Shown: positions 3,359 through 60,990, numbered from the stretch's first letter. The stretch is 64,000 bases of DNA from Candidatus Jorgensenbacteria bacterium GW2011_GWA1_48_11 (GCA_001003475.1 LCPF01000001.1:234571-298570); one strand, 5' to 3'. A program made the numbers and translations. Notes: generated by a model not told the origin, from the letters alone.

Positions 3359-4189
3359 ATGTCGAAGTTTTTTGACGCGCATACGCATGCTCAGTTCGCG
3401 GCCTATGACGAAGACCGCGATTTTGTTATTAAGCGGGCTTTAGCCGCGGGTGTCGGCATGGTGAACGTGGGTACGACCCGGATGACATCCGAGGCCGCGG
3501 TTGGGCTGGCGCATCGATATTCCGGAATTTGTTTTGCGACTATCGGCGTCCATCCGAGTCACGCTTCGGTCTCGGAATACGTGGACCCGGATGAAATGGC
3601 CTCTGGCGGCGAAGAAAGATTGGAAATCGAATTGTACAAGAAACTGGCCGCGGACCCGGCCGTGGTCGCGATCGGAGAATGCGGTTTGGATTTTTTCCGC
3701 GTGACCGGCGAGGCGGTCCGGGAAAAGCAGAAAGCTCTTTTTGGCGAACACGTTGCTTTCGCGCACGACGTTAAAAAACCGCTGATGATCCATTGCCGGC
3801 AGGCGTTTCCGGAGCTTACCGCTATCCTGCAATCGCGCCGCTCCGAGCTTTTGAATCCGGCTGGCATTGTTCATTTTTTCACGGGCACGGAGGCGGAAGC
3901 GGAGGAACTTTTGAATCTGGGATTTTATTTTACCTTCGGTGGCGTTATCACTTTCGTCCGTGATTACGACCGGGTTATTAAAACGATCCCAATGGAGAGA
4001 ATTTTATCCGAAACCGATGCGCCCTACGTAACGCCAGTGCCCCATCGCGGTCGGCGCAACGAACCGGCTTATGTCACGGAAGTCGTGAAAAAGCTGGCCG
4101 AATTAAAAAACGTTTCGATCGAGGAGATGGCGGCGCAAATTTTGAAAAATGCGGAGCGAGTATTTGGTATTAACTTTTCCAGTCTTTGA
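3359..4189 (+). CDS. tatD: TatD-family metal-dependent hydrolase/DNase
   Basis: N-terminal FDAHTHAQF metal-binding motif and His/Glu/Asp ligands spread through a 276-aa TIM-barrel-sized protein. Confidence 0.8.
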   Translation: MSKFFDAHTHAQFAAYDEDRDFVIKRALAAGVGMVNVGTTRMTSEAAVGLAHRYSGICFATIGVHPSHASVSEYVDPDEMASGGEERLEIELYKKLAADPAVVAIGECGLDFFRVTGEAVREKQKALFGEHVAFAHDVKKPLMIHCRQAFPELTAILQSRRSELLNPAGIVHFFTGTEAEAEELLNLGFYFTFGGVITFVRDYDRVIKTIPMERILSETDAPYVTPVPHRGRRNEPAYVTEVVKKLAELKNVSIEEMAAQILKNAERVFGINFSSL

Positions 4190-4499: not shown

Positions 4500-5123
4500 A
4501 TGAGTAGTCGTCGTCGTGGCCGGATAAGCCCCAAGCGTGCCCGAGAGATCATGGGTCAGAACTTCTTCGGCATCGAGGAAGCGATTTGGCATTTCGGGGT
4601 GAAGCCCACGCGCGCGGGGCTCTCGACTTTGGCCGAGACCTCATTCCGAGAAGTTATTCTTCGTGAATGCGGGAACACGCACGTTCTCGTTGCCATTCTT
4701 CCGCTCTCGATCCTCGGGATTCGGCGGAGAGTCGGACGCAAGCTCTTCCACAACCACCCGGGCGCCTGGTACGACAGCGAGTCTTTCGCGAAAGTGAAGG
4801 GCGAGGCTTGTTGGCAGCTCGTCCGGAAGACCCCGATCGACAAGAATTTCGGTTCGAAGACCAGGGATGAAGAACAGGCCCTTCTCGGCGAGGACGAAGG
4901 AGTCCCTTCGGCCCGGGTGTTGGTCTACACCACGATCGGCCACTACCTCGCGACTGGCGAGCGGCTCTTCGAACGGGCCTATGCCCGCTCGTCGGACGTG
5001 GATTCGGACGGCGACCATGTCGTCGTCGGCTTCTTCAACTCAGTTGGTCTCGACATAGACCGCTACTGGGACAGCGTCCGCGTCGACAATACCGGTCCTG
5101 CTTCCGCCTTGAAGTTGGACTGA
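4500..5123 (+). CDS. Hypothetical protein, unusually GC-rich (about 60% against about 50% for the flanks)
   Basis: ORF 4461..5123; the preferred start is ATG at 4500, 6 nt after AAGGAG. No recognisable motifs. Composition and codon usage are distinct from the neighbours. Confidence 0.45.
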   Translation: MSSRRRGRISPKRAREIMGQNFFGIEEAIWHFGVKPTRAGLSTLAETSFREVILRECGNTHVLVAILPLSILGIRRRVGRKLFHNHPGAWYDSESFAKVKGEACWQLVRKTPIDKNFGSKTRDEEQALLGEDEGVPSARVLVYTTIGHYLATGERLFERAYARSSDVDSDGDHVVVGFFNSVGLDIDRYWDSVRVDNTGPASALKLD

Positions 5124-9767: not shown

Positions 9768-9853
9768 GTACCCCCCGCATAATAAAGATTATGGAATTAT
9801 TTTGAATTCGCCTGAAATCGGTCGGTTTGGTTTTTATTATGCGGGGGATGTAC
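9768..9853. promoter_or_regulatory. Near-perfect 19–21 bp inverted repeat (GTACCCCCCGCATAATAAA … TTTATTATGCGGGGGATGTAC) spanning the 5' end of the glycosyltransferase gene
   Basis: The arms at 9768-9786 and 9833-9853 are about 46 bp apart. The right arm covers the first three in-frame ATGs of ORF 9827. It lies in the divergent htrA/GT2 intergenic region. Confidence 0.45.
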
Positions 9854-23798: not shown

Positions 23799-23810
23799 TG
23801 GGTTTATTAT

Positions 23811-24050
23811 AATTGGCAGCGAGGCGAAAATAAACAGGAAGGTTTATTTTCAACGAGCAAACCAATTAGTGAAGCGAAGCCTCACTTTAATTGGCAGCGA
23901 GGCGAAAATAAACAGGAAGGTTTATTTTCAACGAGCAAACCAATTAGTGAAGCGAAGCCTCGCTTTAATTGGCGGTGGGCAAAAAGCAAAAACGAAGCGG
24001 TTTTATTTCGGTCGAACGAGCCAATTATATCTGGCGAAACGAAGATATAG
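23811..24050. repeat. 78-bp tandem direct repeat: two copies differing at one base plus a degenerate third copy
   Basis: Units at 23811-23888 and 23889-23966 are identical except for a→g at position 75. The third unit, 23967-~24050, has diverged. Each unit contains an internal inverted motif (AATTGG…CCAATT). Unit length is a multiple of three. Confidence 0.9.
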
Positions 24051-24619
24051 TATGTCCAAAACATGAGGCCGTAGTCCTCGGCTTCCTGGGAAGTGAGGTA
24101 AAAATCCCGGTCCGTGTCCTTCTCTATTTTTTCGAGCTTCTGGCCGGTATGTTTGGCCAGGATGTGGTTGATCTTGTCTTTTATTTTCACGATTTGTCTC
24201 GCCGTGATTTCAATTTCAGTGGCTTGGCCTTCGGCGCCGCCCATCACTTGATGCAGGAGAATTTCGGAATTGGGCAAAGCGAACCTTTTGCCTTTCTGGC
24301 CGGCGGCGAGCAAAACCGCGCCCATTGAAGCGGCCATGCCCACGCAAATCGTCGAAACCGGCGCTTTGACGTGTTGCATCGTGTCGTAGACCGCAAGGCC
24401 GGCCGTGACCGAACCGCCGGGCGTATTCAAATAAAGCTTGATATCTTTTTTCTGGTCTTCGTGGTCGAGGAGCAAAAGTTGGGCGATGACGCTGTTCGCC
24501 ACCTGGTCGTTGATCGGGCCGCCTAGAAAAATGATCCGCTCTTTTAAAAGGCGGGAGTAAATATCGTAAGCCCGCTCGCCGTAAGCCGATTTTTCGATGA
24601 CTGTAGGAATTAAATTCAT
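23882..24619 (-). CDS. clpP: ATP-dependent Clp protease proteolytic subunit, with a C-terminal extension of about 55 aa encoded by the tandem repeat
   Basis: N-terminal [32 protein letters not shown] and the catalytic Ser in GMAASMGA. The conserved core ends near …AEDYGLM (about codon 190). The ORF then reads through repeat units 3 and 2 and stops at the single-base difference of unit 1. Confidence 0.85.
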
Positions 24620-24723
24620 CCCGTTAGAAATGGAATCACCTGCGACGTTTTATTCTGGCCGCAATATTTTCGAAAAATACTCAGTTTAGTAATAGTTAGA
24701 ATATTGGCGCCATTTCTAACGGG
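24620..24723 (-). repeat. Leader element copy 1: about 104-bp unit bounded by 14-bp inverted repeats (CCCGTTAGAAATGG … CCATTTCTAACGGG), abutting the clpP ATG
   Basis: Arms at 24620-24633 and 24710-24723. On the minus strand the 3' arm ends …TTCTAACGGG and is immediately followed by the clpP ATG. The interior is homologous to copy 2 (…GCGGCCAGAATAAAA… against …GCGGTCTGAATCAAA…). Confidence 0.7.
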
Positions 24724-24728
24724 ATTCA

Positions 24729-25211
24729 TTACGGATATTTTACCAGGCTGATTTCGGTGGCGTCAAATTTTTCGGCGTCCTTGATGTTCTCGGTGCTTGT
24801 TACAGTCACGGCATCGCCGACTTTAAGGTCGGAAAGTTTGAGGCCGGCTATCCTCGGTTGGCCGGTGGCGCTCAATTTACTGTAATCAATCAGGAAGAAT
24901 TTCGTGTCTTTCGTGACGAGGGCGAATCTGGTCTGGGTCGCCCGGGGCGTATTGTCGGTGTGGGGGAGATAGTCGTTGGGGTCAGGCACGAGGAGATTCA
25001 CGGTGCCGCCGTAGATGCCGGTAATCTTGCCGCTTAAGCTCTTAATGACGTCGGGCGGCTTCGGAAAAGCGTAATCCAGAAGCGGCGATAGTTTTTCCGT
25101 CGTTTCTTTCGCCCCTTGGTTTTTGCCGAGGTAAACACCCAAGGCCAGGACCAGGGCCAAAACAGCCAGGCCGACGAAGATGAAGACAATAGTTCTGCTT
25201 CTGGGGGTCAT
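24729..25211 (-). CDS. Hypothetical membrane-anchored protein
   Basis: N-terminal TM helix (IVFIFVGLAVLALVLALGVYL) and a 130-aa extracytoplasmic domain. Its stop lies 5 nt from leader element copy 1. Confidence 0.5.
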   Translation of the reverse strand: MTPRSRTIVFIFVGLAVLALVLALGVYLGKNQGAKETTEKLSPLLDYAFPKPPDVIKSLSGKITGIYGGTVNLLVPDPNDYLPHTDNTPRATQTRFALVTKDTKFFLIDYSKLSATGQPRIAGLKLSDLKVGDAVTVTSTENIKDAEKFDATEISLVKYP

Positions 25212-25344
25212 AATGCTTATATATAGTATAGCATTTTCGTTTCATAATTTTTAAAGCTAGGCTTGACTTTTTTATATAATATGCTATACTTATATAATCG
25301 AAGTTCATTGACAGTCTTATACAACCCTTTGCGAGGATACGACG

Positions 25345-26124
25345 GTGAAGCTCAAGCGCTTGTTCCACAGCGTGTGGGCGTTGGGCTTTGTCGCGTGTAG
25401 CGATAGCCCGATTGCTCCACCGCCACCGCCCCCGCCTCCCATCCCGCCTACTCTTTCGGTCACGACCAACGAGGTCGGTCCGGAGAGTGCGTTGGTCCAC
25501 GCCTCGGCAAACACAGCCGTAGCATGGCGCGTCTTCTGGGGTTCGACGCTTGCTTTCGGCGACACAACGCCGGAAACCAGTCCGTCGCCCGAGCTGAACC
25601 AAACCCTCCGGGGACTCCGAGCGCTCACCACCTATTACTATCAGGTGGAGGCGCGGCTGGATTCTCTGCGGGTGCGGCTCTCAGGCGAGTTCCGAACCCC
25701 CGACTACCCGGTTTGCGACAACCGGAACACGACTACGCCGACCGTGACAGTGACGATCACCTGGACTTCGCCGACGCCGCCGGTCATGGGAAACATTCCG
25801 GTTCTGGACAACGTCGATCTACGCGACTGCAACGGTAGGGTTCTGACCCAGAACGGTGATCAGTTTTTCAGCGGGAGTCCAGGCACGGTCCAGATGCGCG
25901 TGAACTATGGCTCCGGACCGCACTGGTTTGGAGGCATGGTTTTCACGAACGACATTTGGTTCGTGCGCTGGGTTGACGCTTCGGAATTCCGCGTGAACGG
26001 CGTTCGGCTCACCCAGCCTACGGATTCCATGCCGCCGACCTGGCCATGCCGGCCCGATGTCGGTTGCATCCCGGGGCCCCGCTGGAAGTTCTGGGTGGAC
26101 AGCCTGGGCGGTGTCCATTCCTAA
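25345..26124 (+). CDS. Putative lipoprotein with an FN3/PKD-like segment; high GC (about 62%)
   Basis: Signal peptide with the lipobox-like LGFVAC; a poly-Pro run (PPPPPPPPIPP); …TTYYYQVEA… beta-sandwich signature. Its GC content is clearly above the neighbours. Confidence 0.5.
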   Translation: MKLKRLFHSVWALGFVACSDSPIAPPPPPPPPIPPTLSVTTNEVGPESALVHASANTAVAWRVFWGSTLAFGDTTPETSPSPELNQTLRGLRALTTYYYQVEARLDSLRVRLSGEFRTPDYPVCDNRNTTTPTVTVTITWTSPTPPVMGNIPVLDNVDLRDCNGRVLTQNGDQFFSGSPGTVQMRVNYGSGPHWFGGMVFTNDIWFVRWVDASEFRVNGVRLTQPTDSMPPTWPCRPDVGCIPGPRWKFWVDSLGGVHS

Positions 26125-26137
26125 CCCTCGCTCCAAG

Positions 26138-26153
26138 AGCTCTCTAGAGAGCT
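26138..26153. repeat. 16-bp perfect palindrome AGCTCTCTAGAGAGCT
   Basis: Exactly self-complementary; 14 nt after the stop of the lipoprotein gene. Confidence 0.5.
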
Positions 26154-26163
26154 AATGCAATGT

Positions 26164-26207
26164 GGCCCTGTTGTCCCTCCCCGGGATAACAGGGCCATGC
26201 TTTTTTC
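26164..26207 (+). terminator. Rho-independent terminator
   Basis: Stem GGCCCTGTT…AACAGGGCC, followed by ATGCTTTTTT. Confidence 0.7.
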
Positions 26208-26242
26208 CAAAATATCGGTATGTTATAATATAGATAACTTGT

Positions 26243-26348
26243 CCCGTTAGAAGCGGCTCTAAATAACTATCAAAAATATTAATAAAATGACTTTCCTTAA
26301 TTTAAGCGGTCTGAATCAAATGCGGAGTTTTGTTCCGCTTCTAACGGG
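26243..26348 (+). repeat. Leader element copy 2: inverted-repeat-bounded unit (CCCGTTAGAAGCGG … CCGCTTCTAACGGG) abutting the ATG of ORF 26349
   Basis: Arms at 26243-26256 and 26335-26348; the ATG is at 26349. An extended -10 TGTTATAAT lies at 26217-26225, so the element would be a transcribed 5' leader. Confidence 0.7.
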
Positions 26349-27587
26349 ATGAAATTATTCAAAAACCCATTCTTTTATTTAAGTTTGGTTTTGGCAATTC
26401 TTTTGGGTTTTCAGGTCGGGGCGATTGTGCGTGGCGCCGACTGGGTGGGGCCCACTGATTCCAGGGGCTTTCCCTACGGCAATCCGGCAGCGCCGCTTTA
26501 TCAAAGCAATGCCATTCAGCAAGACCCAACATCCGGCGCTTTGGTTGCTCCGGTTGCGGCTGGTTCAACTAATGGCGTTACCTTAGGCAACGGCTTTGTC
26601 GGTTTTAGCGCGGATACTTCGATTCAAACTACTAATAATGGTTTGGCTTTCACGCCCTTAACTAGCGGTAATCTAACTCTTTTGTATTTTGGGTCAGCGG
26701 GATTCAGGTTAAACCAAATGGGCTCTGCGTTAGGCAATGCATTGACAATTAATGTGAGCACGCCAAGCGCAAGCTTGGACACGGGTTTTAATTTGGACTT
26801 CAACGGTTCCATTAACGCGAAAAGTTTTTATGTGAACGGCGTGCCGTTTGTCACCGATGCCGGCGGCCAGTGGACAATAAACGGCAATGACATCTATTAT
26901 AATCAGGGCGGCGTGGCCATCGGGGCAAATACGAATACCGCCGGTTTCAATTTTGAAGCCTACGCGCCAATGCGTCTTTATACCCCGAATGCCGACACGC
27001 ATACGCGGTCAATCAATGTTTGCGCCGACAACGACATAGGGATAATTTATACCCGATCTGGTTCGCTCGGCCAAATCTGGGTGGCCGGCACTGGCAATTC
27101 TGATGCCAGAGCATCGGTTGGCAGTTTCACCGACTGGGGCGTAAACTGCGCTAACAATGCTAAAGTTCAAGGAAATAATGTTTTTGATTTTGCGACCGAA
27201 GCCTATAAAATGTATGAATTTGATTGGAATTACGTTCCCGCTGGCGCCAGCCTTACGGCGACAGCCGGCGTAGGCGGCTCGGTCAGGCACGGACTGGCCG
27301 ATTCGGAGGGAAACAGTTTTGTCTATACCGAACCGTTCGCTATCCTTGACTGCTCTGCCACCTTCAAGGATTCAAATGATCAGATTATTGCGTTGACGCC
27401 CTCAATAAATCGCCCCTACAACTATAATGGCACAAGTTATCTTTTGGGTATCAGCAGAAATTGTACGGCGGCTGCCCTGGGCGGCGCCCAGATGGTGGCG
27501 GTGACTTTGAAGATAAACTGGAATGAAGCGAACGTTTTCCAGGATCCGCCGAACACTTTTTACATTCAAAACCAGCCTACTTTTTAG
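26349..27587 (+). CDS. Secreted protein, tail-fibre-like (…GQWTINGNDIYYNQGGVAIGANTNTAG…)
   Basis: N-terminal signal/TM segment. The Gly/Asn/Thr-rich beta-rich composition and the 'NDIYYNxGxVGIG' motif are common in phage tail fibres and intramolecular-chaperone-type surface proteins. Confidence 0.5.
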   Translation: MKLFKNPFFYLSLVLAILLGFQVGAIVRGADWVGPTDSRGFPYGNPAAPLYQSNAIQQDPTSGALVAPVAAGSTNGVTLGNGFVGFSADTSIQTTNNGLAFTPLTSGNLTLLYFGSAGFRLNQMGSALGNALTINVSTPSASLDTGFNLDFNGSINAKSFYVNGVPFVTDAGGQWTINGNDIYYNQGGVAIGANTNTAGFNFEAYAPMRLYTPNADTHTRSINVCADNDIGIIYTRSGSLGQIWVAGTGNSDARASVGSFTDWGVNCANNAKVQGNNVFDFATEAYKMYEFDWNYVPAGASLTATAGVGGSVRHGLADSEGNSFVYTEPFAILDCSATFKDSNDQIIALTPSINRPYNYNGTSYLLGISRNCTAAALGGAQMVAVTLKINWNEANVFQDPPNTFYIQNQPTF

Positions 27588-34875: not shown

Positions 34876-34941
34876 ATATTCATCCCGATCCGCCTAAGTT
34901 TTGCGAAGCAAAATTTTGGCGGGGAGGTTAAGCAGATTTAA

Positions 34942-35054
34942 CCCCGCACCTTTATGGCAGAGACTAAAACCATGTATCAAAGTAGAGCCGCAGGCGAACC
35001 GCTTCGCTCTTATTTTAATTTGCAATTCAAATCTTTGCAGCAAAGGTGCGGGGT
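34942..35054 (+). mobile_element. pil-junction element copy D (divergent): CCCCGCACCTTT … AAAGGTGCGGGG inverted repeats enclosing a 39-codon ORF that starts ATGTATCAAAG…
   Basis: Same architecture and the same ATGTAT(A/C)AA mini-ORF start as copies A and C; it lies between the small-protein gene and pilB. Confidence 0.5.
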
Positions 35055-36948: not shown

Positions 36949-38022
36949 ATGACGGACTACAAGGCTAAGTTGGACGAGCTCTTGATGACGACGGCGAAAC
37001 AGAACGCTTCGGATTTGCATTTGGCGGTCGGCCGCCGGCCGACGATCAGGGTGGACAGCGTTCTTATCCCCATTGCCAAGGAAGCGATCTTGACCAAGGA
37101 AGACGCCGAGGGTCTCGCGATGGCGCTTTTGAACGATGCCCAGAAGAAAGAATTTTTGGAAAAACGGGAGCTCGACCTTTCCTATAATTTTGAAGATAAG
37201 GCCCGGTTCCGGGTGAATGTTTATTTCCAGCGCGGATTTATGGCTGCCGCCCTGCGTTTGATTCCGGCCCAGATCAAGACAATTGAGGAGTTGAATCTGC
37301 CGCCGCTTTTGCATGATTTCACCAGGTTGAAGCAGGGATTCATTTTAATGACCGGCCCGGCCGGCCACGGCAAGTCCACCACTCTGGCGGCTCTCTTGGA
37401 TGAGATCAATCACAAGCGGACTGACCACATCATTACGATTGAAGACCCGATTGAATATTTGTTTTCCCAGGATCGTTGCATCATTTCCCAACGGGAAGTG
37501 GGGTTGGACACTTTTTCTTTTCAAGACGGCCTTCGTTCGATTTTGCGGCAGGATCCGGACGTGATCATGTTGGGCGAAATCCGCGACCCGGAGACGATGG
37601 CGACAGCGATGACGGCTGCCGAAACCGGCCATTTGGTTTTTTCGACCATGCATACCAATTCCGCTTCCCAGACCATTGATCGAATGATCGACAGCTTCCC
37701 GCCGAACCAGCAGGGTCAGATCATTTCCCAACTCGCTTCGACTCTGATCGCCGTGGTTTCGGAACGTTTGGTGCCGCGTTTGGGCGGCGGCCGAGTGCCA
37801 GCGGCCGAAATCATGATCGCGAACGCCGCCATCCGCAATTTGATCCGCGAAAAGAAGATTTACCAGATCGATTTGGTGATCGAAACCTCGATTCAGGAAG
37901 GAATGATGTCTTTAAATCGTTCACTCGTGAGCCTCGTCAGGAAAAAAGAGATTTCTTTGGAACAAGCCGAAGGTTATTCCTTGAACCCGGCCGAACTCAG
38001 GATATTATTAGAAAGAGCCTAA
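36949..38022 (+). CDS. pilT: Twitching-motility ATPase PilT
   Basis: Walker A GPAGHGKSTTLAA and the PilT-type Asp and His boxes; 357 aa. Confidence 0.85.
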   Translation: MTDYKAKLDELLMTTAKQNASDLHLAVGRRPTIRVDSVLIPIAKEAILTKEDAEGLAMALLNDAQKKEFLEKRELDLSYNFEDKARFRVNVYFQRGFMAAALRLIPAQIKTIEELNLPPLLHDFTRLKQGFILMTGPAGHGKSTTLAALLDEINHKRTDHIITIEDPIEYLFSQDRCIISQREVGLDTFSFQDGLRSILRQDPDVIMLGEIRDPETMATAMTAAETGHLVFSTMHTNSASQTIDRMIDSFPPNQQGQIISQLASTLIAVVSERLVPRLGGGRVPAAEIMIANAAIRNLIREKKIYQIDLVIETSIQEGMMSLNRSLVSLVRKKEISLEQAEGYSLNPAELRILLERA

Positions 38023-38159
38023 TCCCTCACCCTTCAAAGATATGAAGCTTAATCCAATCAATAAAATAATGTTTATGAATAAAACAGGCCGATTTCATAA
38101 AGGGTCGTTAATCATCAAAGACCGCTTCGAGAAGAAGCGTAATCTTTGAAGGATGAGGG
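38023..38159 (+). mobile_element. pil-junction element copy C: TCCCTCACCCTTCAAAGATA … TAATCTTTGAAGGATGAGGGA with a 26-codon mini-ORF (38069..38149)
   Basis: Starts right after the pilT TAA and ends 1 nt before the pilC ATG. The mini-ORF MFMNKTGRFHKGSLIIKDRFEKKRNL is close to copy A's (…KGTLIFEDRF…). Confidence 0.7.
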
Positions 38160-39365
38160 ATGAAATTCGGTTATAAAGCGAGGACGAAAGAAGGGGAATT
38201 GCAGGTGGGGAACGTCGACGCCTCGAATCGCGACAGTGCCCTCTCGATCCTTTTGAGTCACGGGCTTTACGTCCTTACGATCGAGCCGGTCATTGAGGAA
38301 AGATGGTACGACCGGATATTGAGTTTTTTCAAGAAGGTCAAAGCCGACGACATCATGATCTTTACGCGGCAGTTTGCGACGCTTTTGGCCTCGCAGGTGC
38401 CCTTATCCGACAGCTTGGCCAATCTTTACAAACAAGTTACCAATCCGACCCTGAAGGAGGCGGTTGCGGAGATCGCCTCGGACATTGATGCCGGCTTTTC
38501 CCTGTCTCAAGCCCTGGAGCGGCATACCGCCATTTTTTCCGCTTTTTACATCAACATGGTGAAATCGGCCGAAGTCACCGGCCGATTGGCCGAAGTGCTG
38601 GACTTCTTGGCCGACTATCTGGAGAAGCAGGCGACTTTGGTCGCGAAAGTGAAGAACGCCCTCATTTACCCGGTGATCGTGATCGCGCTTTTCCTCGTTG
38701 TCGTCGTCATTATGGTGACCGTGGTTTTGCCGCAAATCACGCCGGTCTTCAAGGAAACCAACGTTAAATTGCCGTTCTTTACCGAGGTTTTGCTTACGGT
38801 CGGCACTTTTGTCGCCGATTGGTGGTGGGCACTCGGCATAATTTTGATAATTCTTTTTTTGATGGTCGTTGATTATTTCCAATCGAAGGAAGGGAAAGTG
38901 GTTTTCGACGAGCTCTCCTTGCGACTGCCCGTCGTGGGGCCGATGTTCCAGAAACTTTTCATCGCCCGTTTCGCCGAGTCGAGCCGGGTCCTGATCAAAG
39001 GCGGGCTCACCATTCCCCAAGCGATCGAAATTTCCTCGCGTACCATCAGCAACGCGGTCTATCAGGATTTGCTCCACGAAGCGGCGATCCAGATCAGGAA
39101 GGGCCAGCTTTTATCGAAGACCTTGGCGCAAATGCCCGAGTTTCCGCCCCTGGTTTCCCAGCTCGTTTCGGTCGGCGAGTCCACTGGCCGACTGGAACAG
39201 CTTTTGGAGAAAATAAACGATTTTTACACGCGTCAAGTGGAAGACGTGGTCAATAACCTGGTAAGTTTGATCCAGCCGATCTTAATGGTGGTGATCGGCG
39301 TGATGATCGCTATTTTATTCGCTTCCATTCTTTTGCCGCTTTACGATTTGGCGCGGACCTTCTGA
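38160..39365 (+). CDS. pilC: Type IV pilus platform protein PilC (GspF family)
   Basis: Two GspF repeats and three TM segments; 401 aa. Confidence 0.85.
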   Translation: MKFGYKARTKEGELQVGNVDASNRDSALSILLSHGLYVLTIEPVIEERWYDRILSFFKKVKADDIMIFTRQFATLLASQVPLSDSLANLYKQVTNPTLKEAVAEIASDIDAGFSLSQALERHTAIFSAFYINMVKSAEVTGRLAEVLDFLADYLEKQATLVAKVKNALIYPVIVIALFLVVVVIMVTVVLPQITPVFKETNVKLPFFTEVLLTVGTFVADWWWALGIILIILFLMVVDYFQSKEGKVVFDELSLRLPVVGPMFQKLFIARFAESSRVLIKGGLTIPQAIEISSRTISNAVYQDLLHEAAIQIRKGQLLSKTLAQMPEFPPLVSQLVSVGESTGRLEQLLEKINDFYTRQVEDVVNNLVSLIQPILMVVIGVMIAILFASILLPLYDLARTF

Positions 39366-57533: not shown

Positions 57534-58220
57534 ATGAAAGTATTAATTTACGGCCGCAAACAGAATGAAGCCGAGCCGCTGGCCAAAAAAATCGGCTTTG
57601 ATTTGGTCCGTCAGAACCCCGATTTCGTGTTGAGTTACGGCGGCGACGGTACTTTAATGAAAGCGGAACATTCTTTCCCGGGCGTGCCCAAAGTGATTTT
57701 GAGAGGCGGTTCGGTCGGCAAGAAAGCTTCTTATTTATCCAACGAACAAGTTCTGGCCCTTTTCAAAAAAGGCGATTATAAGATAAAAGAATTCCTGAAG
57801 TTGTCGGTGACGGCGAAAAACAAGGAAATGACGGCCTTGAACGACGTCACGGTTCATAATCAGGATCCCCGGCACGCCATTCGTTACCGGATTTGGACCG
57901 ACGATAACCCGATTGAACACGAAATTATCGGCGATGGCATTGTCGTCGCGACGCCTTTCGGCTCAACCGGCTATTATCGCTCGATTACCGGCAGTTTTTT
58001 TGACTTAGGCTTGGGTTTGGCTTTTAATAATTCCACCGAGCCGGTTGACCACATGATTTTGGCCGAAAGTGGCGAAATTAAAATAAGAATTACGCGCGGG
58101 CCGGCCGCCGTTTACGCCGACAATCAGGAAGAGTATATTTTACTGAACGACGGCGAGGAAACGATAGTGAAAAAATCCGCCGGAAAAGCTAAAATTTTAG
58201 TGTTTGAGCAGGGCCCATAG
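57534..58220 (+). CDS. nadK: NAD+ kinase
   Basis: GGDGT(L) motif and NE/D short motif; 228 aa. Its last codons overlap a tRNA-Ala 5'-half-like sequence. Confidence 0.8.
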   Translation: MKVLIYGRKQNEAEPLAKKIGFDLVRQNPDFVLSYGGDGTLMKAEHSFPGVPKVILRGGSVGKKASYLSNEQVLALFKKGDYKIKEFLKLSVTAKNKEMTALNDVTVHNQDPRHAIRYRIWTDDNPIEHEIIGDGIVVATPFGSTGYYRSITGSFFDLGLGLAFNNSTEPVDHMILAESGEIKIRITRGPAAVYADNQEEYILLNDGEETIVKKSAGKAKILVFEQGP

Positions 58221-58239
58221 TAAAGTGGTATTACGCGGC
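58211..58239 (+). pseudogene. Duplicate of the tRNA-Ala(CGC) 5' half (29 bp, 2 mismatches)
   Basis: GGGCCCATAGTAAAGTGGTATTACGCGGC compared with GGGCCTGTAGTAAAGTGGTATTACGCGGC of the intact gene 118 bp downstream. No anticodon or T-arm follows. Confidence 0.6.
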
Positions 58240-58329
58240 CCCGCCCATACTTCGTGTGATGGGATTGCGATTTATAGATAAAAATCATAAGATTTTTATA
58301 CAAATCGGTAACATTCGTTCTTCACCCTT

Positions 58330-58400
58330 GGGCCTGTAGTAAAGTGGTATTACGCGGCATTCGCATTGCCGAGGCAGGGGTCCGATTCCCCTCGGGTCCA
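58330..58400 (+). tRNA. tRNA-Ala (anticodon CGC)
   Basis: Acceptor GGGCCTG/CGGGTCC with G3·U70, anticodon stem CGGCA/TGCCG with loop TTCGCAT, T-loop TCCGATT. Confidence 0.75.
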
Positions 58401-58547
58401 CAACAAAAAACAAGCCTTTATGGTTGGTGTTTTTTGTTTTATGACGGGGGAATCGGACAGGGAAAAGGGTCGGGAAAACGGGAGTTTTCCCGTGGCGGAA
58501 GTATTGAAACCGCAAGGTGTCAAAAAATTTCGTGGATACGGAATTTT

Positions 58548-58640
58548 GTCCGCTTCCCCTCAGGTCCACGGGTCTAAGGGTGAAGAACGGAGAGCCCGAC
58601 TTGTGGTGAGCAGGGCCGAACCATTCTCGCTGGGTCCACA
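58548..58640 (+). repeat. Two degenerate tRNA-Ala 3'-end-like fragments (58548-58569 …TCCCCTCAGGTCCAC; 58625-58640 …TCGCTGGGTCCACA)
   Basis: Both resemble the T-arm and acceptor 3' strand …TCCCCTCGGGTCCACA of the intact tRNA-Ala(CGC). The ORF-track ORFs in this stretch are probably spurious. Confidence 0.45.
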
Positions 58641-58675
58641 AAAAAAACGCCGGTCTTTATGACCGGCGTTTTTGT
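58641..58675. terminator. Bidirectional rho-independent terminator (AAAAAAA-CGCCGGTC-TTTA-TGACCGGCG-TTTTT)
   Basis: 8–9-bp GC stem flanked by A- and T-runs. It serves the plus-strand tRNA region and the minus-strand PHP gene. Confidence 0.75.
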
Positions 58676-59364
58676 CTGACGAGATATTTCTGTCGGTATT
58701 TTCTCGCGTCGCCCCAGAGAGTGGAGATTATCATTTCGCTCCAAAACTTGCTCGGCTCCGAGAAATTTTCAAAGTTTTTCAGGCGGATAGCTTCGAAGAC
58801 CGCGGCCGCGGTCTTTTCCTCGGCATCGATTACGGCGTAAGCCTTGGTCAGTATTTTCAATTCGTGCGTGTCCGAGGTGGCGAGATACGGCAGGTTTCGC
58901 TTTTTAGCTAGGGTTTCCGCTTTCGAATTGAGGTTTACTCGTTTGGAATAAAACCAGGAATGTTCGATCGCGTCGAAAATGCCGATGTGCTCCTCTAATT
59001 TTTCGCCGAGACAGTAAGGCGTCGGGAAATAAGGATGAGGCGCCAACACAAAGGCGGCGGGCCGACTTTTTTTGTAGGCTGCAAGTCCGGCGAAAGTATC
59101 GATTTTTTCTATATCCTTGTCGGCGTTCAAAATCACCACGTGCCGCCGTTCGATGTTCTTTTCGATGCCGGGAATGAAAAGAATGTTGTTTTTGGCGGCA
59201 TGGGCCGCATATTCGGGGAGATCAATGAACCGGTTATGGCAAGTCAAGGCGATTACTTCAAAACCGAGCCGGGCGGCCTCGTCGATCCCTTCTTGGAAAG
59301 AATAATCAATAACGTCATGAGGATCGTCCTTGGAGTGGAAATGCAGATTGGCTTTTAATTTCAT
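58657..59364 (-). CDS. PHP-domain (polymerase/histidinol-phosphatase-like) phosphoesterase
   Basis: N-terminal NLHFHSKDDPHD metal-binding motif and further His/Asp ligands; 235 aa. Confidence 0.65.
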   Translation of the reverse strand: MKLKANLHFHSKDDPHDVIDYSFQEGIDEAARLGFEVIALTCHNRFIDLPEYAAHAAKNNILFIPGIEKNIERRHVVILNADKDIEKIDTFAGLAAYKKSRPAAFVLAPHPYFPTPYCLGEKLEEHIGIFDAIEHSWFYSKRVNLNSKAETLAKKRNLPYLATSDTHELKILTKAYAVIDAEEKTAAAVFEAIRLKNFENFSEPSKFWSEMIISTLWGDARKYRQKYLVRQKRRS

Positions 59365-59579
59365 CCCTTTGGAAACAGAACAAATGTCCGTGTTTGGTCC
59401 AGACTTTCTGGATTGTGGTAAATCATACGATGGCTGTTTTTTTGTCTTTTATTAAAGCTGTTTCTAAAGGGATGAATGTGGATAGATTAGATTTGGCGGA
59501 TTGGTCTTATGTTATAATTAATTCAGTTAATATCAAAGGTCGAACTTACTAGTCAATTTATTATTCAGAACAGCAAATT

Positions 59580-60316: not shown

Positions 60317-60375
60317 AAGGGCTTTATTCAAAAATCAGAATTAAAGATGAATTATTTTTGAAGATAAAACCCTAC

Positions 60376-60477
60376 CCCGTTAGATAGCGGTTAAAACCAT
60401 TGAATTGAATTAAAATAAAATAAAAATCAGAAAAATAGTCGGATTACCTCGGACAGCGCTGGAGCCGCATCTAATGG
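60376..60477 (+). repeat. Leader element copy 3 (divergent): CCCCGTTAGATAGCGG … CCGCATCTAATGGGG followed by GTG; lies in the 5' region of the rplU operon
   Basis: Arms at 60376-60391 and 60463-60477, with the same CCCGTTAGA…TCTAA(C/T)GGG core as copies 1 and 2. The 3' arm is followed by GTG, opening a 33-codon ORF, about 200 bp upstream of rplU. Confidence 0.45.
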
Positions 60478-60684
60478 GGTGAGCGATTTTGTTTTAAAGC
60501 TTGCCCCGCACCGAGCCGAGCACTGCAGCGTCCAGTCGTTTTCCTCGTTAAGATATTTTCGTTCGCAAATCAGGGAATAATATCGAAAAACATAATCTGT
60601 TGCAAAACGCTATAGAAAACGTAGTGCTCGATCTGGTGACGGGACTTGACTTCGCTTCGCTCATCGGCTTTAATTAAAATCGTT

Positions 60685-60990
60685 ATGTTTGCGGTTATTG
60701 AGACCGGCGGCAAACAGTATTTTGTGAAGCCGGGCCAGAAAATTAAGATTGAAAAAATAGAAGCGGATGCGAAAAAGCATCCGGTTTTCGACAAGGTCTT
60801 GCTCAAAAAGGGCAAAACAGAAGTCGAAATCGGTCTGCCCTACATTAAAGGCGCGAAGGTGGAAGCGAAATTTCTGAATCAGGGCCGCAGCGAGCGGAAA
60901 ATAGTTTTCCGGTATCATTCGAAAACCCGTTACCGCAAATTCAAAACCCACCGCCAGCCGTTTACCGAGATAGAGATTACGAGTATCTAG
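60685..60990 (+). CDS. rplU: 50S ribosomal protein L21
   Basis: MFAVIETGGKQYFVKPGQKIKIEK…; the internal Met at 60685 is taken as the true start. Confidence 0.85.
   Translation: MFAVIETGGKQYFVKPGQKIKIEKIEADAKKHPVFDKVLLKKGKTEVEIGLPYIKGAKVEAKFLNQGRSERKIVFRYHSKTRYRKFKTHRQPFTEIEITSI

Follow-up and report, generated by a model that had tools for sequence, protein, structure and literature searches.

A hairpin-forming element of the miniature inverted-repeat type that probably meets start codons through the geometry of its insertion

We analyzed a 64,000-nt stretch of DNA (the window) that is a strain variant of the Rifle groundwater Candidatus Jorgensenbacteria genome GCA_001004035.1 (contig LCQG01000005.1). 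The window carries two short units, here called copy 1 and copy 2, each of which ends directly at a start codon, that of clpP in the first case and that of a 412-aa open reading frame (ORF) in the second. These units are very probably copies of a non-autonomous, hairpin-forming mobile element of the MITE type (miniature transposable elements with inverted repeats), the contact with ATG arising from the geometry of insertion.

Copies 1 and 2 and their empty sites

The two copies and the sequences adjoining them are listed below (window coordinates).

24619..24724, minus strand: copy 1 including the outer T:A pair; 13-bp terminal inverted repeat (TIR) T-CCCGTTAGAA-AT; the clpP ATG begins with its 3'-terminal A
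24725..24728, minus strand: left (upstream) TGAA duplicate, which with 24729 preserves the ancestral ATG
24615..24618, minus strand: right (downstream) TGAA duplicate, which with the terminal A of the element makes the present clpP start, ATG AAT
26242..26349, plus strand: copy 2 including the outer T:A pair; the ATG of the 412-aa ORF begins with its 3'-terminal A
26221..26229, plus strand: extended -10 TGTTATAAT of the 412-aa gene; ancestral host sequence, outside the element

Copy 1 proper (24620-24723, minus strand) is bounded by the perfect 14-bp arms CCCGTTAGAAATGG and CCATTTCTAACGGG, with pairing that reaches 16 bp, and copy 2 proper (26243-26348, plus strand) by the perfect 14-bp arms CCCGTTAGAAGCGG and CCGCTTCTAACGGG; the form common to both is CCCGTTAGAA(AT/GC)GG and its complement. 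The clpP start (MNLIPTV), at 24619 on the minus strand, lies directly 3' of the arm of copy 1 with zero spacing, and the ATG of the 412-aa ORF, at 26349, stands in the same relation to copy 2. One further T...A pair in both copies puts the A of the ATG inside the helix. A preliminary description of this DNA had reported two units of about 105 bp, bounded by perfect 14-bp inverted repeats and flush against ATG, and in both respects it is borne out; we also agree, on direct reading, that no Shine-Dalgarno sequence is visible. Its label 'tail-fibre-like' for the 412-aa ORF was dropped, as the ORF has no Pfam match. By our arithmetic about 0.02 perfect 14-bp inverted repeats within about 100 nt are expected per 64 kb, and two of the same sequence are not a product of chance.

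The interiors of the two copies are also related. Aligned in the relative orientation given in the preliminary description, they score 14.5; 500 shuffles gave -2.2 +/- 3.7, and the opposite orientation gave -9.5. Structure prediction formed the closing helix in both copies, with folding energies of -39.7 kcal/mol (z = -5.4) for copy 1 and -33.5 kcal/mol (z = -4.0) for copy 2. Both copies are present in all nine near-identical contigs, which derive from several samples.

Relatives were collected with the 160-aa protein adjoining clpP as the query. The order 160-aa gene, clpP, tyrS is the same in three related species, which also share, on the other side, a GC-rich 261-aa gene and a 405/414-aa gene. 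In these relatives, TAATGAAT or TGATGAAT occurs just once at the clpP junction, as an overlap of stop and start that includes one TGAA; the empty sites read CAGTAATGAATCTAATT (loci L137/L138) and CTTTGATGAATCTGATC (L135/L136), which have the form (TAA/TGA)TGAAT in L135-L138. Copy 1 is absent at the orthologous site in L135-L139. The window junction reads CCGTAA-TGAA-[T-CCCG...CGGG-A]-TGAA-TTTAATT, in which the ancestral clpP ATG overlaps the TAA stop (24729-24731) of the 160-aa gene. Because the relatives have a single TGAA and the window has one on either side of the unit, copy 1, as judged from these junction sequences, is an insertion with a 4-bp target duplication.

The site of copy 2 in the relatives consists of a GGTATGNTATAAT promoter (TATAAT), 8-11 nt, and ATG, with no element. 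The orthologous GGTATG(C/A)TATAAT stands upstream of the orthologues of the 412-aa gene in L136/L137, and the promoter of copy 2 is thus ancestral host DNA, present in relatives too. The preliminary description had placed an extended -10 before copy 2; the motif TGTTATAAT exists, but at 26221-26229 rather than at 26217.

Between the two copies lies a 259-aa lipoprotein-like gene (25345-26124) with a poly-proline stretch and a GC content of 62%, compared with 50% for the genome. Its orthologues, at the same position in relatives without elements, have 64% GC. Because the orthologues are equally GC-rich, the high GC content has long belonged to the gene and does not point to recent transfer. The suggestion that copies 1 and 2 bracket a 1.5-kb cassette is refuted by the conserved synteny without copies, and a composite transposon carrying the lipoprotein gene was rejected on the same gene order and the equally GC-rich orthologue.

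The 3' side of clpP may differ among strains. At 24063 the window is without 62 nt found in the NCBI record (L001 7653-7714), which comprise the last 10 clpP codons, the stop codon and a terminator hairpin AAACCCGCCATGGACTGGCGGGTTT. As a result, the clpP ORF of the window is 245 aa long and not 194 aa, the last 60 aa being a tail that extends across a tandem repeat. This may be genuine variation between strains, since the window agrees fully with one independent Logan contig (L005). The clpP-tyrS interval (23810-24050) contains about three tandem copies of the 78-bp unit AATTGGCAGCGAGGCGAAAATAAACAGGAAGGTTTATTTTCAACGAGCAAACCAATTAGTGAAGCGAAGCCTCACTTT; where the window has this repeat, L135, L136 and L139 have a small gene with a GreA/GreB domain (82-88 aa).

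The family across phyla and the rebuilding of start codons

One genome per species was scanned with the pattern CCCGTTAGAA-N60-90-TTCTAACGGG, and the detectable interiors are therefore about 60-90 nt long. The preliminary description had pointed to a genome-wide search for such arm pairs; here, the same arms were found at at least 119 loci in many phyla. The family counts given below refer to the matches listed from these loci, 119-123 copies of which were analyzed with their flanks. About 34 matches are expected by chance (our arithmetic, assuming uniform base composition), and nearly all of the matches carry a shared flank signature that is unexpected for chance matches. About half of the first 80 records with titles belong to Patescibacteria, in many classes; the remainder are Planctomycetota, 'Deltaproteobacteria'/Desulfobacterota, Omnitrophota, Nitrospirota, Gammaproteobacteria, Bdellovibrionales, Edwardsbacteria and Stahlbacteria. 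Six copies were found in viral contigs; a plasmid collection gave chance matches only, and a phage collection gave none.

The consensus element is Y-CCCGTTAGAA-NN...NN-TTCTAACGGG-R, with a 13-bp TIR and a variable interior; the units within reach of the scan are 80-110 bp long. The base outside CCCG/CGGG is a pyrimidine on the left and a purine on the right, and the two are complementary in 111 of 119 copies. Watson-Crick pairing amounts to 90% at position 11, 83% at position 12 and 43% at position 13, and at positions 14-22 it lies at the background level of 24-36%. Only short ORFs cross the elements, which have no coding capacity for a transposase. Interiors are unrelated across lineages, with subfamilies inside lineages and similar or identical copies within genomes; DX4.bin27 has four identical copies, for example, and L082 has two copies that are 90% alike.

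The flanks of the copies carry a direct repeat of the form TNNA, which is perfect in 72 of 119 copies and matches at three or more of the four positions in 85 of 119. The perfect duplications include TTTA (13 copies), TGAA (13), TAAA (12) and TTCA (8); TTAA is not among them. The two middle bases match as a direct repeat in 81 of 119 copies and as an inverted repeat in 11 of 119. Five or six of the six flank positions match in 61 of 120 copies, compared with 6 of 118 in a control with the flanks shifted by 10 nt. Beyond the repeat, a purine is found on the left in 90 and a pyrimidine on the right in 83 of the 119 copies. The target model is R|TNNA|Y with a 4-bp duplication, as in the junction ATGAAC-[...]-GTGAAT. 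A duplication of 5 or 6 bp was rejected: at the outer positions of the 6-mer, a match is seen in no more than 60/119 and 54/119 copies, yet the two are mutually complementary in 111/119. Because these outer positions pair with each other but match in only about half of the copies, the model takes a 4-bp duplication together with a Y:R pair borne by the element.

Under this model the position of start codons can be understood. Insertion into A|TGAA|N, within the first two codons of a gene, would give A-TGAA-Y[CCCG...CGGG]R-TGAA-N. The 3' foot would then read RTG-AAN, in which codon 2 follows an unbroken ATG or GTG, and the 5' foot would keep the old ATG together with any overlapping stop codon of the upstream gene. 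The 3' arm would meet the start codon because the terminal purine of the element and the duplicated TG rebuild ATG or GTG, and start-codon insertions would persist because both genes survive.

A copy was counted as abutting a start if its foot met the RTG of an ORF of at least 70 aa, or of at least 40 codons when the ORF ran off the end of the locus. By this measure 46 of 123 copies (37%) abut an RTG start. Among the 49 abutting element sides, 34 have the old start codon in the left duplicate, and in 16 copies the stop codon of the upstream ORF lies inside the left duplicate, as an ATGA or TAATG overlap. Copies with a T:A outer pair, which rebuilds ATG, stand at starts in 30 of 38 cases, compared with 13 of 73 for copies with a C:G pair, which rebuilds GTG (p = 4e-10). 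This enrichment may reflect selection for ATG or a lineage effect, two causes that the counts do not separate. Other signals are rebuilt as well. At targets of the form G|TTGA|C, a -10 hexamer lies 16-18 nt downstream of the rebuilt TTGAC in 7 of 9 copies, and a TAG supplied by one frame of the arm closes upstream ORFs.

Three of the 123 copies (about 2%), L044, L049 and L073, lie in frame within recognizable genes. Their arm-to-arm lengths are 87, 102 and 105 nt, all multiples of three, and the six additional bases, from the outer pair and the 4-bp duplication, keep the frame. These copies are free of stop codons, read PVR...SNG(V/I) and would add about 30-36 residues. By sequence reading only, the hosts are indolepyruvate-oxidoreductase-like, polyprenyl-synthase-like and AmmeMemoRadiSam-B-like genes.

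Short direct repeats around a stable hairpin, a few of them inside genes, would also be compatible with an element that acts at the RNA level, either by translational bypass (a 'hop') or as an excised intervening sequence, the flanking codons being the take-off and landing sites. Most copies, however, are intergenic or lie at gene boundaries, and in the start-codon class no more than two codons make up the upstream copy. Moreover, L044, L049 and L073 are in frame and stop-free, as is expected of sequence that is translated and not skipped (a chance of about 0.001 by our estimate). We consider an RNA-level element extremely improbable.

Insertion at start codons can be followed at one further junction, that between pilT and pilC, for which 22 of 52 metagenomic relatives of the pilC-like gene were inspected. 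Empty junctions read TTAAAATGAAATT, CATGATGTATGAAA or TAATGATG (L150, L159, L160-L163 and others). L148 and L151 have elements with CCCGTTAGAGAC arms and a TGAA duplication, and L146 has an element with CCCGTACACTTAAAAAGGAT arms and a C:G outer pair, its pilC starting with GTG; the element of L157 has inverted flanks. The interiors cannot be aligned, except that of L146 with L147 and that of L148 with L151. Orthologous elements with compensatory changes in the arms were considered and rejected, because the interiors fail to align across groups. The simplest reading is that of independent hits at the same A|TGAA|A, with the pilT-pilC junction as a hot spot. With these members included, the family becomes a superfamily whose common marks are CCC...GGG ends and the same target. 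The pilT-pilC spacer of L153, L156 and L167 holds another repeat, of short CGAATA or CACGAAT-like units, with no CCC...GGG hairpin.

In DX4.bin27, the four copies, at L012, L015 and L046, each sit in the same longer repeated context, CCTCTGTATGTTYAC-[element]-GTTTATATGCYATTA. Two inverted copies enclose a 2.7-kb segment coding for a 686-aa secreted protein, possibly as a composite structure.

Further units in the window and the probable mobilization of the element

An inverted-repeat scan of the window revealed more units of 76-140 bp with CCC...GGG arm ends.

60375..60479, plus strand: copy 3, older and diverged; arms CCCCGTTAGATAGCGG and CCGCATCTAATGGGG, with one mismatch and one indel
59364..59472, minus strand: copy 4; arms T-CCCTTTRGAAACAG; a PHP-domain gene (58657-59364) has its ATG directly at the foot
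38023..38160, plus strand: unit 5; arms T-CCCTCACCCTTCAAAGAT with CCC...GGG ends, different from those of copies 1-2
9772..9847, plus strand: unit 6; arms CCCCCGCATAATAAA with CCC...GGG ends; direct repeat ATGTAC/ATGTAC
34941..35054, plus strand: unit 7; arms A-CCCCGCACCTTT with CCC...GGG ends; about 60 nt upstream of a pilB-like ATG

At least five units of the window abut start codons, namely copies 1 and 2 and at least three more, and all of the units fold with z values of -3.5 to -5.8 and energies of -33 to -45 kcal/mol. The spacer between the PHP-domain gene, whose domain was assigned by the Pfam scan, and cmpX is 215 nt long with copy 4, compared with 98-104 nt in L140/L142. Unit 5 fills exactly the space from the TAA of the pilT-like gene (38020-38022) to the ATG of the pilC-like gene (38160), to which it contributes its final base as the A. 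The right repeat ATGTAC of unit 6 is the start of a glycosyltransferase-like membrane protein. Unit 7 has neither a duplication nor contact with a start codon, and its membership in the family is uncertain. Single-mismatch matches to the arms at 4968 and 31101 were discarded as chance occurrences within coding sequence.

Copy 3 is followed by GTG and stands 207 nt upstream of the rplU ATG at 60686. The cmpX-rplU spacer that contains it is 425 nt long, compared with 76-101 nt in the relatives L141-L143 and 255 nt in one relative. The diverged third copy of the preliminary description exists, at 60375-60479, but its assignment to the rplU leader is doubtful: since copy 3 lies upstream of the promoter-like site of rplU, it is probably outside the leader.

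In the same region, the tRNA-Ala(CGC) gene (58330-58401) is ringed by partial copies of itself, of the 5' half at 58211-58240 and of the 3' end at about 58555-58572 and 58630-58640, and by a 22-bp inverted repeat (58316-58337 / 58568-58589). On sequence, these surroundings (58200-58640) look like the scars of integration at a tRNA gene.

By analogy we infer that the mobilizing enzyme is a DDE transposase acting in trans; the link to piggyBac/IS1380 is drawn because CCC termini and a 4-bp T..A duplication resemble those of that group. A size below about 500 bp, the terminal repeats, the duplication, the empty sites and the multiple copies all agree with a MITE, a parent transposase not being found in the DNA searched.

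Several observations weigh against a transposase-driven element of this kind. The duplication is imperfect or absent in 47 of 119 copies, including copy 2, copy 3 and unit 5, in the last of which it is either imperfect or missing. Copy 2 has no target duplication and the left flank ACTTG, and ACTTG-T is common to copy 2, L116 and L123, all of which are without a duplication. Copy 3 has no gene start at its foot either. A minority of copies has inverted flanks (copy 4, L157, L044 and L106), those of copy 4 reading TTCA...TGAA instead of a direct repeat. It is speculation that a piggyBac-like route, in which the 4-nt overhangs of the donor pair with a different target and hairpins are opened off-centre, could yield imperfect and inverted flanks.

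The searches for the enzyme itself also count on that side. All-against-all clustering of 592 ORFs in about 0.9 Mb of flanks from the genome scan revealed no recurrent transposase bounded by arms, and the representatives of the recurrent flank ORF clusters appeared housekeeping-like by eye, with no profile scan made. There was no candidate transposase ORF beside solo arms, and no long CCC...GGG arm pairs bounding a transposase were found in 1.3 Mb of fetched DNA. The Pfam scan of ten window ORFs (seven large ones of unknown function and three others) revealed no transposase. The 2.7-kb segment between the inverted copies of L015 contains the 686-aa secreted protein and no parent transposase.

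Finally, the outer pair and positions 11-12 co-vary and pairing ends sharply at position 12, although a repeat that serves only for transposase binding needs neither, and mini-hairpins of about 28-30 nt with the same arms exist. Taken together, the co-varying pairs, the sharp end of pairing and the mini-hairpins suggest that the hairpin itself could be the functional unit.

The mini-hairpins, which have little beyond the two arms, were seen in L066 (about 3950-3979), L100 (4792-4820), L048 (1263-1290) and L095 (about 3950-4010). At least that of L100 has a TAAA duplication, and that of L095 looks like an element nested in the arm of another. In L079 (5058-5165), from a metagenome-assembled genome of the Bdellovibrionales, the CCCGTTAGAA and TTCTAACGGG arms enclose an apparently complete tRNA gene in place of an AT-rich interior.

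These features lead to a second candidate for the mode of movement, a hairpin-dependent site that is handled as folded single-stranded DNA, either like the attC site of integrons or like the REP/REPIN elements moved by RAYT/HUH enzymes. The attC core consensus is GTTRRRY / RYYYAAC, and the arms hold GTTAGAA / TTCTAAC, the same heptamers. A stem of fixed length with co-varying pairs, a loop of 3 to about 250 nt and the failure to find a transposase in the DNA searched would also suit such a site. The order of the boxes is mirrored, however, being 5'-GTTAGAA...TTCTAAC-3' where attC has 5'-RYYYAAC...GTTRRRY-3', and the stem is perfect, without extrahelical bases or an unpaired spacer; attC was rejected on these two grounds. 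REP/REPIN was rejected because a duplication is present and the arms are without a GTAG head. The copies are also dispersed singly and not in cassette arrays. To our knowledge, integron integrases and HUH transposases do not make a 4-bp target duplication. We rate movement as a single-stranded hairpin as very unlikely, and retain a MITE, presumably moved in trans by a DDE transposase, as the preferred reading.

Expression, known systems and meaning

The preliminary description had proposed a dedicated cis-regulatory RNA, such as a thermosensor for clpP. This proposal found no support: the leaders of clpP and of the 412-aa gene in sister genomes are without the unit, the same arms occur in unrelated contexts, the units have target duplications, and they match no Rfam family. 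A scan of the window at the Rfam gathering threshold returned only tRNAs, and a scan of the region with a permissive E-value gave a best score of 24 bits, compared with a gathering score of 170. The genes neighbouring family members are diverse, with no fixed association with a gene family.

Its other proposal, a mobile promoter/leader cassette, stands in part. The unit is mobile and becomes a leader, but it has no promoter-like site that reads into the gene. There are no such sites inside copies 1 or 2, and on direct reading no -10-like hexamer was found 6-7 nt upstream of the rebuilt ATG; for these two reasons the promoter-cassette reading was rejected.

The following features bear on expression.

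24616..24729, minus strand: candidate relay upstream ORF (uORF) of 37 codons, which starts at the ancestral ATG and spans copy 1 entirely; its TGA and the clpP ATG share bases as ATGA
26287..26352, plus strand: predicted 21-codon ORF in copy 2, MTFLNLSGLNQMRSFVPLLTG, in the same frame as the copy-1 uORF; its TGA overlaps the main ATG
24737..24766, minus strand: promoter-like TTGACG-18 nt-TAAAAT with TG before it, inside the 3' end of the 160-aa gene; a consensus match only

Between the end of the promoter-like site at 24737..24766 and the ancestral clpP ATG there are 7 nt, which would allow clpP to be transcribed without a leader; the sequence of the site recurs in relatives but is also coding. 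On the transcript, the A and the U of the AUG would be hidden by the closing helix of copies 1 and 2 (about 15-17 bp with the outer T:A pair). In the case of clpP, ribosomes would start at the retained ancestral ATG, through TAATG coupling or at a leaderless 5' end, and those on the 37-codon ORF would open the helix, terminate at the UGA of AUGA and begin again on clpP. Such a regulatory side effect, with the AUG in a helix and a relay uORF that ends in AUGA, is one we infer from sequence. Stop-free read-through in the uORF frame was found in 14 of 34 start-class copies across the family, compared with 64 of 208 control orientations (p = 0.24), and a relay uORF as a selected feature of the whole family was rejected because read-through is not enriched.

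A -10 hexamer 7-11 nt before the ATG, with no Shine-Dalgarno sequence, is seen in many genes of the window and its relatives. Examples are tyrS and, in relatives, the orthologues of the 412-aa gene, pilC and rplU; the spacer of rplU in the window is about 10 nt. The loci concerned are 23799-23830, 26221-26241 and 60648-60686 of the window, together with L136, L137, L143, L144 and L155. The many hexamers at this distance suggest that leaderless or near-leaderless mRNAs are frequent in this lineage of Jorgensenbacteria, on which we found no paper in the literature on leaderless mRNAs.

A selected regulatory leader, in which the helix sequesters the start and is opened by heat or another signal, or in which an insert was exapted later, has points in its favour. 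The helices are far more stable than shuffles (z = -4 to -5.8) and take in the A and U of the AUG, no Shine-Dalgarno sequence is visible, and both copies are fixed in the nine near-identical contigs. clpP is moreover a stress gene. Sister orthologues, however, are entirely without the element, and the same arms stand beside unrelated genes, in -35 boxes and inside ORFs, across phyla. The interiors are not conserved and have no Rfam match, and covariation of the arms ends at 13 bp and is coupled with target duplications. We regard a selected leader as unlikely, and the insertion geometry of a MITE as the far better account of the contact with ATG.

A wider scheme would combine several of the features above: a cross-phylum superfamily of CCC...GGG hairpins that homes to A|TGAA starts and ATGA junctions, whose 13-bp stem is recognized, and which is moved by a piggyBac/IS1380-like or hairpin-specific enzyme and retained as a hairpin-gated, uORF-relayed mobile module of translational control in small-genome bacteria. 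As a whole, we think this scheme doubtful.

Among known systems, the element is most readily compared with bacterial MITEs, of which Correia/CREE of Neisseria, ERIC, RUP and Nezha have been reviewed (PMC3184786). Like them, it is about 100 bp long, non-coding, bounded by TIRs and a duplication, and dispersed in mostly intergenic copies; transcribed copies of bacterial MITEs also fold into a long hairpin and may alter the expression of neighbours. It differs from Correia in that the arms are CCCGTTAGAA and not the 26-bp Correia repeat, and the duplication is TNNA and not TA. Unlike bacterial MITEs in general, the same 10-13 nt arm occurs in many phyla and not in one genus, the start codon is rebuilt by the terminal purine and the duplication, and no parent insertion sequence is known.

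A classical piggyBac terminal repeat is 13 bp long. The element shares with piggyBac/IS1380 the 5'-CCC...GGG-3' termini, short terminal repeats and a 4-bp duplication of the form T..A. The piggyBac duplication, however, is TTAA, more rarely TAAA, TCAA or CTAA, whereas here it is TNNA, mostly TGAA, TAAA and TTTA, and an additional co-varying Y:R pair lies outside CCC. The link is by end features only, no such transposase having been found near any copy. The repeat motifs of piggyBac are CCCTT, CCCTC and CCCAT, and IS1380 transposases have been taken as the prokaryotic outgroup of piggyBac (PMC10813416).

Three other systems share single features with the element. The Rickettsia palindromic elements are palindromic repeats of about 100-150 bp that can also sit in frame and be translated; here, by comparison, about 2% of the copies are intragenic, TIRs and duplications are clear, and the distribution is not confined to one genus. 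The closest known match to the idea of a leader cassette is given by REP2 of Neisseria and IR-A/IR-B of Borrelia, repeats located directly upstream of genes, to which they give the ATG (PMC3184786). Both a promoter and a ribosome-binding site are present in these repeats, and their inverted repeats are internal instead of terminal, whereas the element described here is without a promoter-like site or Shine-Dalgarno sequence and gives only the first base of the start codon. RNA thermometers such as ROSE and fourU resemble it in that a helix takes in part of the start codon and the bases just upstream. Thermometers, however, are short and weak hairpins whose pairing partner is the Shine-Dalgarno sequence and whose conservation follows that of their gene, whereas here a loop of about 80 nt is closed by a perfect stem of at least 13 bp, and of 15-16 bp in copies 1 and 2, which is absent from orthologous leaders. 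A literature search by arm sequence and by topic found no published description of the repeat family, and this hairpin mobile element is apparently undescribed.

The striking 'structured leader' before clpP is the geometry of an insertion scar and not a conserved riboregulator, and a false lead is removed. Gene callers and RNA-motif screens applied to genomes of candidate phyla will meet the same GGG-ATG hairpins, duplicated ATGAAY, GTG starts and short PVR... ORFs. The element also raises the question of how translation proceeds with about 110 nt of stable hairpin before an AUG without a Shine-Dalgarno sequence, in organisms that seem to use leaderless and coupled initiation. If the parent is truly of the piggyBac/IS1380 type, these units would be bacterial counterparts of the piggyBac-derived MITEs of eukaryotes. 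Whatever the parent, the units illustrate a simple transposon strategy for very compact genomes, in which a terminal base and the target duplication restore the start codon, stop codon or -35 box that the insertion has split.

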